Position numbers and translations under genes: made by a program
Shown: piece by piece, positions 332-32,233 of the stretch
Numbering within the stretch: position 1 is the first letter of the stretch
Layout: every line of letters begins with the position of its first letter
Virus record (IMG/VR): IMGVR_UViG_3300032334_001433
Location: 138,666 to 202,665 of that record
DNA: 64,000 bases
Direction: 5' to 3' (one strand)
DNA from: a virus
Taxonomy: Duplodnaviria > Caudoviricetes
Notes under the pieces: model-generated
Told to the model about the DNA's origin: nothing
Databases searched by the model: none
What the model saw: only the letters and a program-made list of their open reading frames with translations

Positions 332-1122
332 TAATAACTGGAGCAAATGGATTTATTGGACAAAATGCAATAGACTATTTTGTAAAAAGAAATTATAATG
401 TCGTTGGTCTTGATATTGAGGATGGCCCAATATATTCAAAAGACATAACAGGAGTTGTTCATTTAGGAGCAATCTCTAATACATTAGAAAAAGATTGGGG
501 TAGGTTAACAAGATTAAATGTTGATAGTACCAATAATTGGTTTGATTATTGTAACGAAAATAATATTCCCTTTATATTTGCAAGTTCTGCTGCAATTTAT
601 GGAAATGGAGACGGACCATTAAATCTTTATGCCAAAAGCAAACTCGATAGCGAAAAATATATTGATAATAGAGCAGTTGTTCTAAGATTCTTTAATGTAT
701 ATGGACCGCACGAGGAGCATAAAGGCAGAATGGCTAGTACAATATATCATTGGTATAATCAAATTAAAGATACAGGTAAGGCAAAAATATTTGAGGAATC
801 TGATTCAATTTATAGAGATTTTATCTATGTACAAGATGTTATTAAAGTAATAGAATTCTTTTTAAATAACTATGTTCCCGGAACATATGATTTAGGATCA
901 GGTACCCAAAATAATTTTGAGTATGTACTACAATGCCTATTAGAAAAAATGGGATTAGGTGAAAAGGAATATATAAAATTTCCTGAAGATATAGTTAATC
1001 AGTATCAAAAGAATACATCTTCTGATATGACAACATTGGAAAAAATTGGATATAATTTATCAAGTATGACTACAATAAAGGAAGGCGTTTCCAATTATGT
1101 AGATTACTTGAAACAAGGATAA
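325..1122 (+). CDS. hldD: ADP-L-glycero-D-manno-heptose 6-epimerase
   Basis: GANGFIG Rossmann motif, HLGAISNT, ASSAAIYG, YAKSK, RFFNVYGPHEEHKGRMAS. Confidence 0.85.
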   Translation: MVIITGANGFIGQNAIDYFVKRNYNVVGLDIEDGPIYSKDITGVVHLGAISNTLEKDWGRLTRLNVDSTNNWFDYCNENNIPFIFASSAAIYGNGDGPLNLYAKSKLDSEKYIDNRAVVLRFFNVYGPHEEHKGRMASTIYHWYNQIKDTGKAKIFEESDSIYRDFIYVQDVIKVIEFFLNNYVPGTYDLGSGTQNNFEYVLQCLLEKMGLGEKEYIKFPEDIVNQYQKNTSSDMTTLEKIGYNLSSMTTIKEGVSNYVDYLKQG

Positions 1123-12043: not shown

Positions 12044-12118
12044 TGCGGGTTGGCGCAGTAGTAGCGCGCTGGACTCATAATCCAGAGGTCGGTGGTGCGA
12101 ATCCATCACCCGCATCCA
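12044..12118 (+). tRNA. trnM: tRNA-Met(CAT), initiator-like
   Basis: TGCGGGT/ACCCGCA acceptor, CTGGA-CTCATAA-TCCAG, T-loop TGCGAAT, CCA. Confidence 0.85.
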
Positions 12119-26067: not shown

Positions 26068-26469
26068 ATGAGTACATTCACAGTTGCAGGTGTTTCCACC
26101 CATGCCGAGCAAGGCACCAAGGTTCGTTTTGCCAATGATCTGGCATCTCGTGTTAAGCTGTTGTCCAAAGGCGGACACGCTCCCCTTGAACTCGTCGAGT
26201 TGCCTAAGCCGATGACTAAAGCAGAAGCTTGCCAGTATCTTCTAGATGCAGGTGGAGTTTTTGAACAATGGACTTCTGTTATTACAGAGACCATGGGCAA
26301 GAAACAAGGTGCTAAGATTAGCACGCCGAAAGTAGTTAAGGCAAAAGCAGTTAAAGCAACAACGGCTAAGGCTCCTGTTGTTAAAGCAAAGCCAGTTAAA
26401 GTTGTGAAAGCTAAGGAAGAAGATTTCGATATTGAAGAAATCAAAGAACTTGCAGACGCAACTTTTTAA
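26068..26469 (+). CDS. Hypothetical early protein with Lys/Ala-rich H1-like tail
   Basis: SD GAAAGG; KAKAVKATTAKAPVVKAKPVK tail. Confidence 0.75.
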   Translation: MSTFTVAGVSTHAEQGTKVRFANDLASRVKLLSKGGHAPLELVELPKPMTKAEACQYLLDAGGVFEQWTSVITETMGKKQGAKISTPKVVKAKAVKATTAKAPVVKAKPVKVVKAKEEDFDIEEIKELADATF

Positions 26470-26510: not shown

Positions 26511-26518
26511 TATAAATA
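26511..26518 (+). promoter_or_regulatory. Late promoter TATAAATA upstream of attenuator leader
   Basis: Exact consensus. Confidence 0.75.
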
Positions 26519-26539
26519 ATTTATAGCAAGGAAAAAGTA

Positions 26540-26635
26540 ATGTTAAGTAAACTAATAGCCCACGGAAAAGACATTTATGGCACACAGCCAGAATGCTTTG
26601 CGCGTCCAAATTCATGGAGAGTGCATCGAGGGTAA
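26540..26635 (+). CDS. 31-aa leader peptide containing all 20 amino acids (putative attenuator)
   Basis: SD AAGGA 26528-26532; MLSKLIAHGKDIYGTQPECFARPNSWRVHRG*. Confidence 0.75.
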   Translation: MLSKLIAHGKDIYGTQPECFARPNSWRVHRG

Positions 26636-26662
26636 GTTTACAGAACATTTCTGAAATCTAAC

Positions 26663-26700
26663 AAACCCTCGGTACCCGCAAAGTCCGAGGGTTTTTTATT
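26663..26700 (+). terminator. Intrinsic (attenuator) terminator
   Basis: AAACCCTCGG/CCGAGGGTTT stem followed by TTTATTTT. Confidence 0.85.
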
Positions 26701-26740
26701 TTAAGTATCCTAGCAAAGCAAAGGGTCTTTAAAATAAGAG

Positions 26741-26769
26741 TTGACAAGGTGTCAAGAGTGTGCTATAAT
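26741..26769 (+). promoter_or_regulatory. Sigma70 early promoter of tRNA array
   Basis: TTGACA-N17-TATAAT with extended TG; palindromic -35 region. Confidence 0.88.
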
Positions 26770-26842
26770 AGACACATAAACAGCAACAGAATGATAGAGT
26801 TAGTTGCTTAGTTCTTTTAAAATTTGTATACCATTTTTAAGT

Positions 26843-26916
26843 GTTCGGTTAGCTCAATAGTAGAGCATACGACTGATAATCGTAAGACAGAGGAGCGTTA
26901 CCTCTACCGAATACCA
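26843..26916 (+). tRNA. trnI: tRNA-Ile(GAT)
   Basis: TACGA-CTGATAA-TCGTA; atypical T-loop AGCGTTA; CCA. Confidence 0.85.
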
Positions 26917-26921
26917 TATGT

Positions 26922-26997
26922 GTCCTGTTCATCTAGCGGCCTAGGATAGTACCCTTTCACGGTATTCACACGGGTTCAAATCCCGTACAGGACTCCA
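26922..26997 (+). tRNA. trnE: tRNA-Glu(TTC)
   Basis: GTACC-CTTTCAC-GGTAT; CCA. Confidence 0.92.
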
Positions 26998-27000
26998 TAT

Positions 27001-27226
27001 TAAAATGTATTAGGTTACCAACCCAGTAGGTGATCTAGGAGAGGATTAATCTGTGGCCGCACAGACTCTGCCTAGACACATGAAAGATAGAGATCGACTT
27101 TGAATTGATCTTGGCGTCGCGCTGGAGTAAGTTGGATGGTAATGTGAATGACGACCAGTCGCATGACGAATGCGTGGTTAGTCCCAGTGGGATTGTTGTC
27201 GGACATCCTAGTACATTTTAATATGG
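27001..27226 (+). ncRNA. Unidentified highly structured RNA (~220 nt) within tRNA array
   Basis: 20-bp closing helix (26995-27014/27207-27226) plus at least 7 nested helices; no ORF. Confidence 0.75.
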
Positions 27227-27232
27227 ATATAT

Positions 27233-27308
27233 GTGCGCGTGACCCGAACGGTTAGGGAGCGGATTGCAAATCCGTATCATGCAGGTTCGACTCCTGTCGC
27301 GCACTCCA
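27233..27308 (+). tRNA. trnC: tRNA-Cys(GCA)
   Basis: GCGGA-TTGCAAA-TCCGT; U73, CCA. Confidence 0.92.
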
Positions 27309-27378
27309 AGTGATGATTTAGATGTTAAACTGAATGCGCTAGCAAACGTCCAATCAGGTGCGAAGCCTGTCCTAATTT

Positions 27379-27454
27379 GGTCTTAAAGTGTTCATGGACG
27401 CACGACGGCTTGTCACGCCGTAAGAGCGGGGATCGTTACCCCCTAAGACCGCCA
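27379..27454 (+). tRNA. trnD: tRNA-Asp(GTC)
   Basis: ACGGC-TTGTCAC-GCCGT; G73; atypical T-loop ATCGTTA. Confidence 0.85.
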
Positions 27455-27465
27455 AATTTTATTAT

Positions 27466-27542
27466 GCCCTGGTGACGGAATTGGTATACGTACTGGTCTT
27501 AGAAACCAGGTTCTGGGAGTTCAAGTCTCCCCTAGGGCACCA
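27466..27542 (+). tRNA. trnL: tRNA-Leu(TAG), short variable loop
   Basis: CTGGT-CTTAGAA-ACCAG; A73 CCA. Confidence 0.88.
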
Positions 27543-27593
27543 AATACTCGCTTTGACTTATGGCGTATAATAGGCTAAGTAATAAGTCACCTT

Positions 27594-27669
27594 GGGGGAT
27601 TAGCTCATTTGGTAGAGCATCTGCTTTGCAAGCAGGGGGCGATCAGTTCGAATCTGATATTCTCCACCA
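27594..27669 (+). tRNA. trnA: tRNA-Ala(TGC)
   Basis: Anticodon TGC, G3:U70, CCA. Confidence 0.93.
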
Positions 27670-27679
27670 GAATTTTTTT

Positions 27680-27755
27680 GCCGGTTTAGCTCATTTGGTA
27701 GAGCAGGCGCCTTGTAAGCGTCAGGTGGTCAGTTCGAAACCGACAACCGGCACCA
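27680..27755 (+). tRNA. trnT: tRNA-Thr(TGT)
   Basis: GGCGC-CTTGTAA-GCGTC; CCA. Confidence 0.92.
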
Positions 27756-27761
27756 GTATTT

Positions 27762-27835
27762 GCGGGGTTCATTTAATGGTAGGATTTCAGCCTTCCAAGC
27801 TGATAGCGCGAGTTCGATTCTCGCACCCCGCTCCA
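27762..27835 (+). tRNA. trnG: tRNA-Gly(TCC)
   Basis: TCAGC-CTTCCAA-GCTGA; CCA. Confidence 0.93.
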
Positions 27836-27841
27836 ATTTTT

Positions 27842-27919
27842 CCGTGTGTAGCGCAGTCTGGTTAGCGCATCTGCTTTGGGAGCAGAGGGTCGGGAGTTCG
27901 AATCTCTCTACACGGACCA
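27842..27919 (+). tRNA. trnP: tRNA-Pro(TGG)
   Basis: TCTGC-TTTGGGA-GCAGA; CCA. Confidence 0.93.
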
Positions 27920-27925
27920 TTTTAT

Positions 27926-28000
27926 TCCTCGATAGCTCAGAGGTAGAGCAGCAGACTGTTAATCTGTTGGTCCGTGGTTCGACCCCACGTCGAGGAGCCA
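27926..28000 (+). tRNA. trnN: tRNA-Asn(GTT)
   Basis: GCAGA-CTGTTAA-TCTGT; CCA. Confidence 0.93.
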
Positions 28001-28006
28001 GTTTTA

Positions 28007-28093
28007 GGATGCGTGTGCCGAATGGTGAAGGCAGCTGACTGTAAATCAGTGACATAAGAAACGTTGGTGGTTCGAGTCCATCCGCATCCACCA
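28007..28093 (+). tRNA. trnY: tRNA-Tyr(GTA)
   Basis: GCTGA-CTGTAAA-TCAGT; long variable arm; CCA. Confidence 0.93.
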
Positions 28094-28097
28094 AAAC

Positions 28098-28172
28098 GCC
28101 TTGTTAGCTCAGCGGTAGAGCAGCGCCCTTACAAGGCGACGGTCGGCAGTTCAATCCTGTCACAAGGTACCA
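28098..28172 (+). tRNA. trnV: tRNA-Val(TAC)
   Basis: CGCC-CTTACAA-GGCG; CCA. Confidence 0.92.
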
Positions 28173-28193
28173 TTTTTATTTTAAGGAAATTTT

Positions 28194-28463
28194 ATGAACT
28201 ATATCCCATTGCAGAACAAAGTTCTGGTCATTGAGAATGAAAAGAAAAAAGTTACAGATAGCGGAATCTATTTAGGTGAAGCTAATGGAGACAGCAATAC
28301 TCGAGCAGGTACAGTTCTTGCTATTGGGCCGGATGTTAAAGAAGTAAAGGTTGGAGATATTGTTTATCCTATGTGGACAAAATCAAAAGTAGTTAAAGAC
28401 GGAGACTTGTATATTGGAATTATATCTGAAGAAGATATTCTTGCAGTTGTAGAAGCTGAATAA
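28194..28463 (+). CDS. groES: GroES-like co-chaperonin
   Basis: PLQNKVLV, T.SGIYL, GTVLAIGP, VKVGDIV. Confidence 0.9.
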   Translation: MNYIPLQNKVLVIENEKKKVTDSGIYLGEANGDSNTRAGTVLAIGPDVKEVKVGDIVYPMWTKSKVVKDGDLYIGIISEEDILAVVEAE

Positions 28464-28470
28464 GATTTTT

Positions 28471-28545
28471 CTGCCGATAGTTCAACGGATAGAACAGTAG
28501 CCTTCTAAGCTATTAATAGAGGTTCGATTCCTCTTCGGCGGACCA
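28471..28545 (+). tRNA. trnR: tRNA-Arg(TCT)
   Basis: GTAGC-CTTCTAA-GCTAT; CCA. Confidence 0.92.
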
Positions 28546-28552
28546 TTTTTGT

Positions 28553-28626
28553 TGGGGGTTAGTGTAGCGGTAACACTACAGACTTTGACTCTGTCATCAC
28601 TGGTTCGATCCCAGTACCCTCTGCCA
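28553..28626 (+). tRNA. trnQ: tRNA-Gln(TTG)
   Basis: ACAGA-CTTTGAC-TCTGT; CCA. Confidence 0.92.
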
Positions 28627-28680
28627 AATTTTTTAAAAAGGAGATCTGTCATGAATAGTGACAAGAGTGATAAGATATAC

Positions 28681-28756
28681 GGGACGTTAGCTCAGTTGGT
28701 AGAGCAGTAGACTTTTAATCTATTGGCCATTGGTTCGAATCCAATACGTCCTACCA
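28681..28756 (+). tRNA. trnK: tRNA-Lys(TTT)
   Basis: GTAGA-CTTTTAA-TCTAT; CCA. Confidence 0.93.
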
Positions 28757-28771
28757 TAAAACTTTTTAGGT

Positions 28772-28844
28772 GTGGCCTTAGTGTTAGCGGTTAGCACCTC
28801 GGATTGTGATTCCGATAGGATGGATTCGAATTCCATAGGCCACC
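28772..28844 (+). tRNA. trnH: tRNA-His(GTG), no encoded CCA or G-1
   Basis: TCGGA-TTGTGAT-TCCGA; C73; flanked by 13-bp inverted repeat. Confidence 0.85.
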
Positions 28845-28861
28845 CCTAAAAAGTTTTTATT

Positions 28862-28937
28862 GCCGCGGTAGCTCATCAGGTAGAGCAGCAGACTGAAAAT
28901 CTGTGTGTGGATGGTTCGAGTCCATCTCGTGGCACCA
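28862..28937 (+). tRNA. trnF: tRNA-Phe(GAA)
   Basis: GCAGA-CTGAAAA-TCTGT; CCA. Confidence 0.93.
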
Positions 28938-28951
28938 ATTTAGAAAAATAT

Positions 28952-29028
28952 GTCTCGGTAGCTCAATTAGGCAGAGCAGTGGCCTCCAAAGCCAAAGGTT
29001 GTAAGTTCGATTCTTACCCGGGATGCCA
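28952..29028 (+). tRNA. trnW: tRNA-Trp(CCA)
   Basis: TGGC-CTCCAAA-GCCA; G73 CCA. Confidence 0.9.
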
Positions 29029-29037
29029 AAGAATAAC

Positions 29038-29125
29038 GGAAGATTGGCAGAGTGGCCGATTGCATCAGTCTTGAAAACTGAAGGCTCGAAAGGGTCCGTG
29101 AGTTCGAATCTCACATCTTCCTCCA
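29038..29125 (+). tRNA. trnS: tRNA-Ser(TGA)
   Basis: TCAGT-CTTGAAA-ACTGA; long variable arm. Confidence 0.93.
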
Positions 29126-29130
29126 AATAA

Positions 29131-29220
29131 GGAGAGCGGGCAGGATGGTAATGCAGCAGATTGCTAATCTGTAGACTATAGTAATATGGTCACAGGGTTC
29201 GACTCCCTGGCTCTCCACCA
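29131..29220 (+). tRNA. trnS: tRNA-Ser(GCT)
   Basis: GCAGA-TTGCTAA-TCTGT; long variable arm. Confidence 0.92.
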
Positions 29221-29225
29221 ATTAA

Positions 29226-29260
29226 GGACAGATGCAAGCACTAGCTTGTTGAGTCCACCA
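29226..29260 (+). ncRNA. CCA-terminated minihelix (tRNA relic or mimic)
   Basis: GGAC/GTCC + CAAGC-ACTA-GCTTG + ACCA. Confidence 0.4.
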
Positions 29261-29265
29261 ATTTA

Positions 29266-29342
29266 CGGCCCTTAATTCAACTGGATAGAAAGCAAGTCTT
29301 CGAAACTTGAGGTTGGGAGTTCGAATCTCTCAGGGCCGGCCA
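29266..29342 (+). tRNA. trnR: tRNA-Arg(TCG)
   Basis: CAAGT-CTTCGAA-ACTTG; CCA. Confidence 0.9.
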
Positions 29343-29349
29343 TATATAT

Positions 29350-29425
29350 GGTAACGTAGCATAGTGGCTAATGCACCACCTTCATACGGTGTTTATCGTC
29401 GGTTCGAGTCCGACCGTTACTACCA
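29350..29425 (+). tRNA. trnM: tRNA-Met(CAT), elongator-like
   Basis: CACC-TTCATAC-GGTG; GGTAACG acceptor. Confidence 0.8.
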
Positions 29426-29431
29426 AATAAT

Positions 29432-29505
29432 GCGGGTATGATGTAATGGTAGCTTATGACCTTGCCAAGGTTAATGTGAGAGTTCGATTCTCTCTACCCG
29501 CTCCA
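29432..29505 (+). tRNA. trnG: tRNA-Gly(GCC)
   Basis: TGACC-TTGCCAA-GGTTA; weak D-stem; CCA. Confidence 0.88.
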
Positions 29506-32158: not shown

Positions 32159-32233
32159 GCCTAGGTAGCTTAATGGTAAAGCAGGCGACTCATAATCGCT
32201 TGAGTGGGAGTTCAATTCTCTCTCTAGGCACCA
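32159..32233 (+). tRNA. trnI: tRNA-Ile2(CAT, lysidine type)
   Basis: AGCAGGCGACTCATAATCGCTT matches recalled E. coli ileX anticodon arm. Confidence 0.8.

Follow-up and report, generated by a model that had tools for sequence, protein, structure and literature searches.

A candidate ribosome-mediated attenuator with an all-amino-acid leader peptide ahead of the tRNA array of uncultured freshwater phages

Attenuation by a leader peptide is the standard textbook case of a sensor for one amino acid. In Escherichia coli, phenylalanyl-tRNA synthetase (pheST) is controlled by leader-peptide attenuation through pheM, so that the decoding machinery is subject to feedback from the supply of charged tRNA, and T-box riboswitches directly bind one specific uncharged tRNA and do not need translation. 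In the attenuators of amino-acid operons, the outcome is decided by a race between ribosome and RNA polymerase over four RNA regions with mutually exclusive pairings (PMC1183508). Here we analyzed a 64,000-nucleotide window of viral DNA (positions 138,666 to 202,665 of IMG/VR record IMGVR_UViG_3300032334_001433), in which a leader open reading frame (ORF) of 31 codons lies between a late promoter and a large tRNA array. Comparison with its relatives indicates that this ORF probably belongs to a ribosome-mediated transcription attenuator with an all-amino-acid ("pangram") leader peptide, with one or a few occurrences of each amino acid. The elements of this module, including the Shine-Dalgarno sequence (SD) and the minimum free energy (MFE) folds, are listed below by window position; all sequence features named in a preliminary description of this DNA were found in place.

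26511-26518, + strand: late promoter element TATAAATA, exact motif of the T4 type
26528-26532, + strand: SD AAGGA, 7 nt ahead of the ATG at 26540
26540-26635, + strand: leader ORF, 31 codons plus TAA, 20 amino acids, 29 distinct codons
26540-26564, + strand: region 1, 5' strand of a long-range helix (anti-antiterminator), AUG included, from the MFE fold
26567-26599 and 26600-26624, + strand: two mid-ORF hairpins, from MFE folds
26625-26648, + strand: region 2 (antiterminator strand), comprising the last codons, the stop codon and the next bases, with region 1 and the terminator 5' arm as alternative partners
26641-26653, + strand: small hairpin CAGAA/TTCTG within the antiterminator loop
26663-26702, + strand: intrinsic terminator (regions 3 and 4), 10-bp stem, 12-nt loop, T-run to about 26702
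26663-26672 with 26685-26694, + strand: terminator arms, AAACCCTCGG with CCGAGGGTTT
26741-26769, + strand: sigma70-type promoter downstream of the terminator, perfect TTGACA-17-TATAAT
26797-26826, + strand: hairpin and boxA-like element GTTCTTTTAAAATTTG ahead of the first tRNA
26843-29505, + strand: tRNA array, the proposed target, 23 tRNA genes for 20 amino acids with small genes interspersed (ARAGORN)

Like the trp, his, leu, thr, ilv and pheA attenuators, the locus combines a short 5'-leader ORF, alternative 1:2, 2:3 and 3:4 pairings and a terminator ahead of the putatively regulated genes. Unlike the trp/his class, it has no run of codons for a single amino acid and samples all 20 once or a few times, its target is a tRNA array rather than biosynthetic enzymes, and the element is viral, with a T4-type late promoter and a 1:2 helix that encloses the whole ORF. 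Tandem control codons were already noted as missing in the preliminary description, in agreement with our finding that no amino acid is enriched in the leader, the composition of which is flat and complete. As judged from sequence, the locus thus has the predicted structure of a trp/his leader-peptide attenuator and lacks the enrichment in one amino acid. None of the amino-acid operon leaders in Rfam was matched at the gathering score (His_leader, 15.5-16.5 bits versus 49). The E. coli pheST/pheM system likewise attenuates a gene of the translation apparatus, but it is Phe-codon-specific, cellular and directed at a synthetase. T-box elements likewise link tRNA charging to the choice between terminator and antiterminator ahead of translation-related genes, whereas the architecture here is ORF-based, with a ribosome that would gauge the state of every tRNA; the leader showed no T-box sequence features and no Rfam match to a T-box at E<=10. 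In the bmrB-bmrCD and erm/cat leaders, a slowed ribosome on a short ORF also flips the RNA structure and turns the downstream genes on (PMC4191407). These leaders differ in responding to ribosome-targeting drugs, often through specific arrest sequences, and they show no need for a complete set of amino acids and have no tRNA genes under their control. Finally, as in rrn-type antitermination, the stretch from the sigma70-type promoter to the first tRNA contains a boxA-like element with a hairpin before it; this element stands apart from the attenuator, downstream of it, and outside the sensing device.

Relatives of the locus were gathered by searching viral contigs with the gene upstream of the leader, which yielded 77 loci with protein identities of 44-81% to the product of the window's gene. 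Their leaders were sorted into 13 clades, and the counts given below as fractions of 13 refer to one representative per clade. The tRNA array comes after the upstream gene in most of the 77 loci, and wherever a large array follows this gene, the leader module sits ahead of the array. Across the 13 clades, the order is TATAAATA, an ORF of 31-41 codons, a spacer of 21-29 nt, the terminator, a sigma70-type promoter, the boxA-like element and the tRNA array. The sigma70-type promoter, which the preliminary description had placed at 26741 downstream of the terminator and which is perfect in the window, follows the terminator by 19-46 nt in 12 of the 13 representatives (the L015 contig stops short of the site), and tRNA-Ile sits 46-143 nt further on. 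The boxA-like motif after a hairpin, between this promoter and the first tRNA, is kept in all leader-bearing clades, as seen by comparison of the same position in L005, L013, L036, L041, L050, L052, L056, L062 and L069 (with GTTCTTTAACAATTTG in L069), and suggests rrn-type antitermination of the phage tRNA operon. In this comparative setting, the earlier proposal of a leader-peptide attenuator between the late promoter and the tRNA array is backed by evidence from all 13 clades.

The property that distinguishes the leader is its amino-acid completeness. Our recount confirmed all 20 amino acids and 29 distinct codons in the 31 codons of the window's leader, as previously reported. A complete set in 31 codons has a probability of 1.3e-4 with the composition of the proteome and of 2.9e-4 in windows of real proteins, and among the 597 ATG ORFs of 25-45 codons in the genome only the leader has all 20. 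After multiple testing, this single-genome chance argument is suggestive, not decisive. As far as sequence comparison can tell, the decisive evidence is the recurrence of completeness in 13 divergent clades: at least 19 amino-acid types were found in 13/13 representatives and all 20 in 9/13, at leader peptide identities between clades of mostly 20-45%, and two further members from a search of representative proteins have 20 types each. A null model based on proteome composition gave a mean of 14.9-16.3 types, with P(20) of 1.3e-4 to 6e-4, and even with the family's own flat composition and 33 codons the probabilities were 0.25% for 20 types and 2.8% for at least 19. Shuffling of alignment columns among the clades, which keeps positional preferences, produced 17.62 +/- 0.28 types versus 19.67 observed, and 0 of 20,000 shuffles reached the observed value. 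The rare residues Cys, Trp and His make up 3-4% in the leaders versus 0.8-1.5% in the proteome. The preliminary description had proposed that the leader is built to hold every amino acid, and had suggested looking for conserved short ORFs of high diversity upstream of tRNA arrays in relatives and shuffling for amino-acid coverage against the small ORFs of the genome. The results of both, that is the diverse but weakly identical peptides of 13 clades and the absence of an equal among column shuffles and genomic ORFs, speak for that proposal.

The shuffles fall below the observed number because single-copy residues move between columns. Asp, which is single-copy in 11 clades, is spread over seven alignment columns, and single-copy Lys occurs in seven columns, His in six and Val in six, with Cys and Trp fixed. 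A peptide consensus is recognizable by its fixed Cys, Ala-Arg and Trp. Within clades, three cases were found in which a residue was lost at one position and regained at another. These shifts point to selection for the presence of an amino acid and not for its position, a pattern that is predicted by a codon-by-codon sensor and by neither a peptide nor an RNA function.

The placement of the single-copy residues is supportive, not conclusive, for an attenuator of this kind. In 15 leaders, only 8 single-copy residues fall in the last five codons versus 22.3 expected (P<1e-4), with an abrupt change at the sixth codon from the stop, and the depletion holds in seven deeply divergent clades (P=0.02-0.05). 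They are likewise scarce in the six codons that follow the AUG and are concentrated between regions 1 and 2, the zone known as the "control region" in attenuation theory (PMC1183508). A ribosome stalled in the last four to five codons would cover region 2 and be read as finished, so that amino acids found only there would be wasted. The preliminary description had raised the masking of the last approximately five codons as a caveat to its own model, and the family provides an answer to it, since these codons hold almost exclusively amino acids already present upstream.

RNA folding of the leader supports the alternative pairings that such a mechanism would need. The segment 26520-26705 folds far better than its shuffles (z = -5.6), and without the terminator the z-scores of the clades go down to -5.6. 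RNAalifold on a MAFFT alignment recovered the terminator alone, and column-wise counts for the 2:3 pairing were unreliable owing to 1-nt register shifts; per-sequence duplex and partner-swap tests were used instead. In all clades, a terminator hairpin (-12.8 to -19.1 kcal/mol) with a T-tract behind it lies between the leader ORF and the tRNA genes, at 21-29 nt past the stop codon. Its stem shows a compensatory change in L069 (T:A to C:G), and in the clades with ACCTCGG one pair was dropped from both arms. The previously noted complementarity between the last codons ATCGAGGGT (26625-26633) and ACCCTCGGT (26665-26673) amounts to 9 bp, one G-U among them. In 10/13 clades, no other site of the leader complements the terminator 5' arm as well as region 2 does (-9 to -15 kcal/mol versus -3 to -7 kcal/mol for the next best site), and in folds of the nascent RNA, from which the 3' arm and region 1 were omitted, 2:3 pairs in 13/13 clades, with weak pairing in one. 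A small hairpin whose sequence varies with the clade is closed within the 2:3 pairing, at the same place as in the window in most other clades. The predicted antiterminator would exclude the terminator, and a ribosome that has come to the ORF end would mask it. Across clades, the AGGGT of region 2 occurs in all three frames relative to the stop codon (CGA GGG TAA, GAG GGT TAA and AGG GTT TGA), which argues that it is conserved as RNA and not as peptide. In L109, one G:C was lost jointly from regions 2, 3 and 4.

Region 1 corresponds to the first approximately 25 nt of the ORF, together with the AUG in some clades. A 1:2 helix between the 5' end of the ORF and the stop region with the non-coding bases beyond it is present in 10/13 clade MFE structures, with a sequence that varies by clade. 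In a partner-swap test, regions 1 and 2 from the same leader paired at -14.2 kcal/mol, whereas swapped partners gave -9.2 +/- 0.75 kcal/mol and 0 derangements reached the value of the own partners; the result also stands with just the 20 non-coding bases past the stop codon. The 1:2 complementarity is therefore lineage-specific. In structure, an anti-antiterminator pairing that would give termination without translation is found with the exception of the clade of L013, L015 and L032. The distance from stop codon to stem is also informative: repression of a terminator by a ribosome at the stop codon ceases in vivo at over approximately 30 bp (PMC4824070), and we count the spacing of 21-29 nt in the family, which approaches this range, as support for the attenuator.

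Two further features of the fold concern the middle of the ORF. A central hairpin of differing sequence is also present in the folds of other clades, and the mid-ORF hairpins are possible pause or synchronizing structures. The Asn-Ser-Trp codon block AAUUCAUGG / AATTCATGG (26612-26620) is conserved even at synonymous sites, and in several clades the AAUUCAUGG block can pair with the terminator 3' arm (26685-26694) in the antiterminated fold. This modeled pairing may be the reason for its synonymous-site conservation, and both terminator arms may be sequestered in the antiterminated fold.

Transcription and translation signals of the leader are equally conserved. TATAAATA is kept in 12/13 clades and replaced by TATATATA in L056. 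Genome-wide it has 28 copies on the + strand versus 7 on the - strand, and 15 of the 28 lie at most 70 nt upstream of an ORF start, versus 13% for 55 8-mers of the same composition (P=5e-7). Of the late-transcription factors, a gp33-like protein is encoded in the genome (phrog_254, E=2.8e-24). The strand bias, the enrichment upstream of ORFs and the gp33 homologue speak for TATAAATA as a late promoter of the T4 type (the gp55/gp33-dependent class). Most clades have an SD 6-9 nt upstream of the start codon, and these are the clades with a spacer of 17-25 nt after TATAAATA. In the clades of L005, L041, L062, L069 and L109, the ATG follows TATAAATA by 5-6 nt and no SD is present, at the following sites:

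L005:4450-4465: leaderless-type start
L041:5302-5318: leaderless-type start
L062:5436-5452: leaderless-type start
L069:5249-5265: leaderless-type start
L109, near 833-1020 (minus strand): leaderless-type start

A distance of 5-6 nt past TATAAATA is the position that we take, from T4 late promoters, to be the transcription start, which implies leaderless late mRNAs in these five clades. Of the six frames, the leader frame alone stays open throughout the 13 clades; the other five are closed in nearly all. With 31-41 codons and an SD or a positioned AUG in the leader transcript, the ORF is presumably translated.

From the computed anatomy, completeness, pairings and residue placement we infer the following course of events, in which translation, termination, read-through and the physiological trigger are the conditional steps. 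The leader would be entered by transcription from the late promoter or by read-through out of the upstream gene. Without translation, region 1 would pair with region 2 and the terminator 3:4 would form. During full-speed translation, the ribosome at the stop codon would cover region 2 at 21-29 nt from the stem, so the terminator would again form and late transcripts would end. A ribosome held at a central codon (from about codon 9 to six codons ahead of the stop) would leave region 2 free to pair with the emerging terminator 5' arm, and with 2:3 formed first, RNA polymerase would continue into the tRNA array. Because every amino acid is sampled in the central window, shortage or destruction of any aminoacyl-tRNA, or a general slowdown of elongation, would lead to more late synthesis of the phage tRNA set. 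The sigma70-type promoter past the terminator would provide an unregulated early supply of tRNAs, to which the attenuated late promoter would add on demand. We lean, with only slightly better than even confidence, towards the view that loss of any charged tRNA delays the ribosome, opens the antiterminator and boosts late transcription of the full tRNA set of the phage, as a "pan-tRNA speedometer". Such loss could result from starvation, from decay of host tRNAs after host shut-off or from host anticodon nucleases.

The tRNA genes of the proposed target were compared with the leader at two levels. The first tRNA of the array is tRNA-Ile(GAT), starting at 26843, the gene order Ile-Glu-Cys-Asp-Leu-Ala... 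is common to the window and its relatives, and ARAGORN found 26 tRNA genes in the window. Clades with the leader have 9-22 tRNAs in the next 4 kb versus 0-10 in eleven related clades without it (Mann-Whitney P=4e-5, not corrected for phylogeny). ARAGORN misses tRNA-Ile(GAT) in L005-L010 (for example L005:4757-4828) though a similar sequence is present, and the tRNA count of this clade is one too low. L012 represents a natural deletion variant that is nearly identical to L013 and L014 upstream, with the same 74-aa ORF after the upstream gene. In L012 (4390-4626 versus L013:2704-3265), the leader, terminator, sigma70 promoter and tRNA-Ile are gone, tRNA-Glu comes next and 10 tRNAs lie in 4 kb.

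At the codon level, the match between leader and tRNA genes is limited. The preliminary description had suggested deliberate sampling of nearly every phage tRNA and isoacceptor, with Leu, Ser, Arg, Ile and Gly each drawn from both of their codon boxes. In the window both boxes are indeed used for all five (10/10 split classes), but this does not extend to the family as a general property. Enrichment of two-box coverage holds for Ser (13/13) and Arg (12/13), in part for Ile (8/13), and not for Leu (6/13, with 6.3 expected) or Gly, and most of the Ser signal comes from one conserved TCA TGG AGT block. Codons fitting phage U34 tRNAs (four-box codons ending in A or G) show hardly any enrichment, at 60% versus 52% in the genome (P=0.03, uncorrected). 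A deliberate sampling of isoacceptors is not generally supported, the matching being conserved for Ser and Arg alone. The related claim that the leader matches 25 of 26 tRNA genes retains its part on the two codon boxes of five amino acids in the window, and its total hinges on U34 reading of GCC and CGT and on the identities of three tRNA(CAU) genes, none of which has the complete signature of a bacterial initiator (1-72 mismatch and three anticodon-stem G-C pairs):

12044-12118, 29350-29425 and 32159-32233: tRNA(CAU) genes, candidates for fMet, Met and Ile2

Four other explanations were considered. A non-specific attenuator that senses ribosome-polymerase coupling as such (overall translation capacity, ribosome availability, or inhibition of an antibiotic-like or toxin-like kind) rather than the supply of individual aminoacyl-tRNAs, with composition as a secondary matter, would have the same anatomy, and it would fit both the weak codon-level tuning to phage tRNAs and the low single-amino-acid sensitivity predicted by theory for 1-3 codons per amino acid (PMC1183508). 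Known leader peptides, such as that of bmrCD, answer to general translation inhibition (PMC4191407). A coupling sensor needs no set composition, yet completeness has been upheld against all 20,000 shuffles with residues that move, and Cys, Trp and His are held at several times their share in the proteome (3-4% versus 0.8-1.5%), which makes this explanation unlikely. The ORF could also be a self-contained late gene for a micropeptide of 31-41 residues, its position before the tRNA array being mere synteny. It has its own TATAAATA, SD and terminator, its consensus contains fixed Cys, Ala-Arg and Trp, and it appears as a small protein family in protein databases. We regard a micropeptide gene as distinctly unlikely, because it leaves unexplained the requirement for each amino acid at free positions, the AGGGT in three frames, the complementarity of the ORF 3' end to a terminator arm and the covariation of the ORF 5' end with non-coding bases past the stop codon; moreover, much of the peptide consensus overlaps conserved RNA helices.

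A structured non-coding or dual-function late small RNA of approximately 160-190 nt, in which the open frame is tolerated and unused, would account for the strong fold (z = -5.6 for 26520-26705 and down to -5.6 without the terminator), the dedicated promoter and terminator, and the burial of the AUG in a long-range helix in several clades. An unused frame would not remain open in 13 clades with the five others closed in nearly all, nor would it retain an SD or an exactly placed leaderless AUG and 19-20 amino-acid types. No Rfam family was matched (best score 22 bits versus a gathering score of 44), and the small RNA appears very improbable. Chance combined with shared ancestry, in which one ancestral ORF happened on all 20 amino acids and its descendants inherited them, draws on the homology of the leaders, on the non-negligible chance of one such ORF among 597 in a single genome and on a short-term substitution test without significance. 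At 20-45% identity, decay toward 16-17.6 types would be expected, whereas 19-20 are seen in every clade and single-copy residues have been relocated, so that this explanation is strongly disfavoured.

Several observations weigh against the all-amino-acid attenuator itself. Completeness is not absolute: several members have only 18-19 types, 5 of 43 within-clade substitutions lose an amino acid, and avoidance of single-copy residues within clades is not significant (8/43 versus 11.3 expected, P=0.16). L035 and L069 have no Asp in the leader yet carry tRNA-Asp, so that the absent amino acid does not track an absent tRNA, and a search across clades for a correspondence between missing amino acid and missing tRNA found none. 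In the window, Val occurs at codon 28 only, within the predicted blind zone, and sequence constraints acting on regions 1 and 2 at the RNA level could account for part of the depletion at the ends. The T-tracts of many relatives are interrupted (TTTTCCTTTT), and in the clade of L013, L015 and L032 the 2:3 pairing is only 4-5 bp and the 1:2 helix is absent. Relatives with 9-10 tRNAs lack the leader, and the strong sigma70 promoter bypasses it. A mid-ORF stall exposes region 1, and 1:2 pairing with termination might re-form in the absence of trailing ribosomes or steric exclusion. RNA libraries, kept as contigs only, offered nothing informative; one 151-nt metatranscriptome contig spans 26551-26700 at a depth of 3 and demonstrates neither transcription nor a transcript 3' end. 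For any one amino acid, just 1-3 of the approximately 20 control-region codons are regulatory, and according to theory so few regulatory codons give low sensitivity to mild limitation of a single amino acid (PMC1183508). The design seems better suited to severe loss of one tRNA or to global slowdown than to fine control.

If the all-amino-acid attenuator is real, it would be the first case in the literature searched, and the first known to us, of a leader that senses all amino acids, has tRNA genes as targets and serves as a viral device; our full-text literature searches found no paper describing such a leader. It would reveal the way in which large phages control their tRNA arrays, a matter hitherto discussed chiefly with regard to codon usage and to evasion of defences that cleave tRNA, and it would provide a self-contained feedback loop for decoding capacity with a built-in answer to tRNA-targeting defence. 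It would also represent a compact portable part of less than 200 nt that reports global aminoacyl-tRNA sufficiency. Under the model, an amino acid represented by a single codon, placed from about codon 9 to six codons ahead of the stop, should elicit a response, and residues confined to the last five codons, such as Val in the window, should elicit none. Conserved composition with free position may serve as a new search criterion for regulatory small ORFs.

The leader family is known solely from uncultured freshwater contigs, and the host of this phage clade is probably a proteobacterium. Megablast and tblastn against 50,697 phage records matched no cultured relative, blastn against the same records gave matches to the tRNA-Glu gene alone, in 7 records, and metagenomes from lakes, rivers and other aquatic sites contained near-identical DNA. 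When 1.8 billion representative proteins were searched with a profile, just eight clusters came back, two new family members among them, and nearly all returns of two DNA pattern scans of viral contigs for more members were already known. Rfam at E<=10 gave sub-threshold noise only. As a single example from elsewhere, none of the ORFs of 25-45 codons in the 24-kb tRNA region of the unrelated Aeromonas phage phiWae14 reaches 19 amino-acid types. The gene used to gather the relatives has no PHROG match and no homologue among cultured phages:

26068-26469: upstream gene, 133 aa, C-terminal half repetitive and Lys/Ala/Val-rich, syntenic with the tRNA array in 77 viral contigs

The viral record that includes the window has 202,665 bp with terminal repeats, and the genome encodes T4-type replication proteins, namely a family B DNA polymerase, a gp59-like loader and a gp32-like single-stranded DNA-binding protein. 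A row of genes for a gp33-like late transcription factor, a gp59-like helicase loader and a gp32-like single-stranded DNA-binding protein is located at G000:C1:69711-71929 (L097:212-2430), which confirms a T4-type replication and late-transcription apparatus. Nearby, on the opposite strand, are a holin-like gene and a baseplate hub gene.

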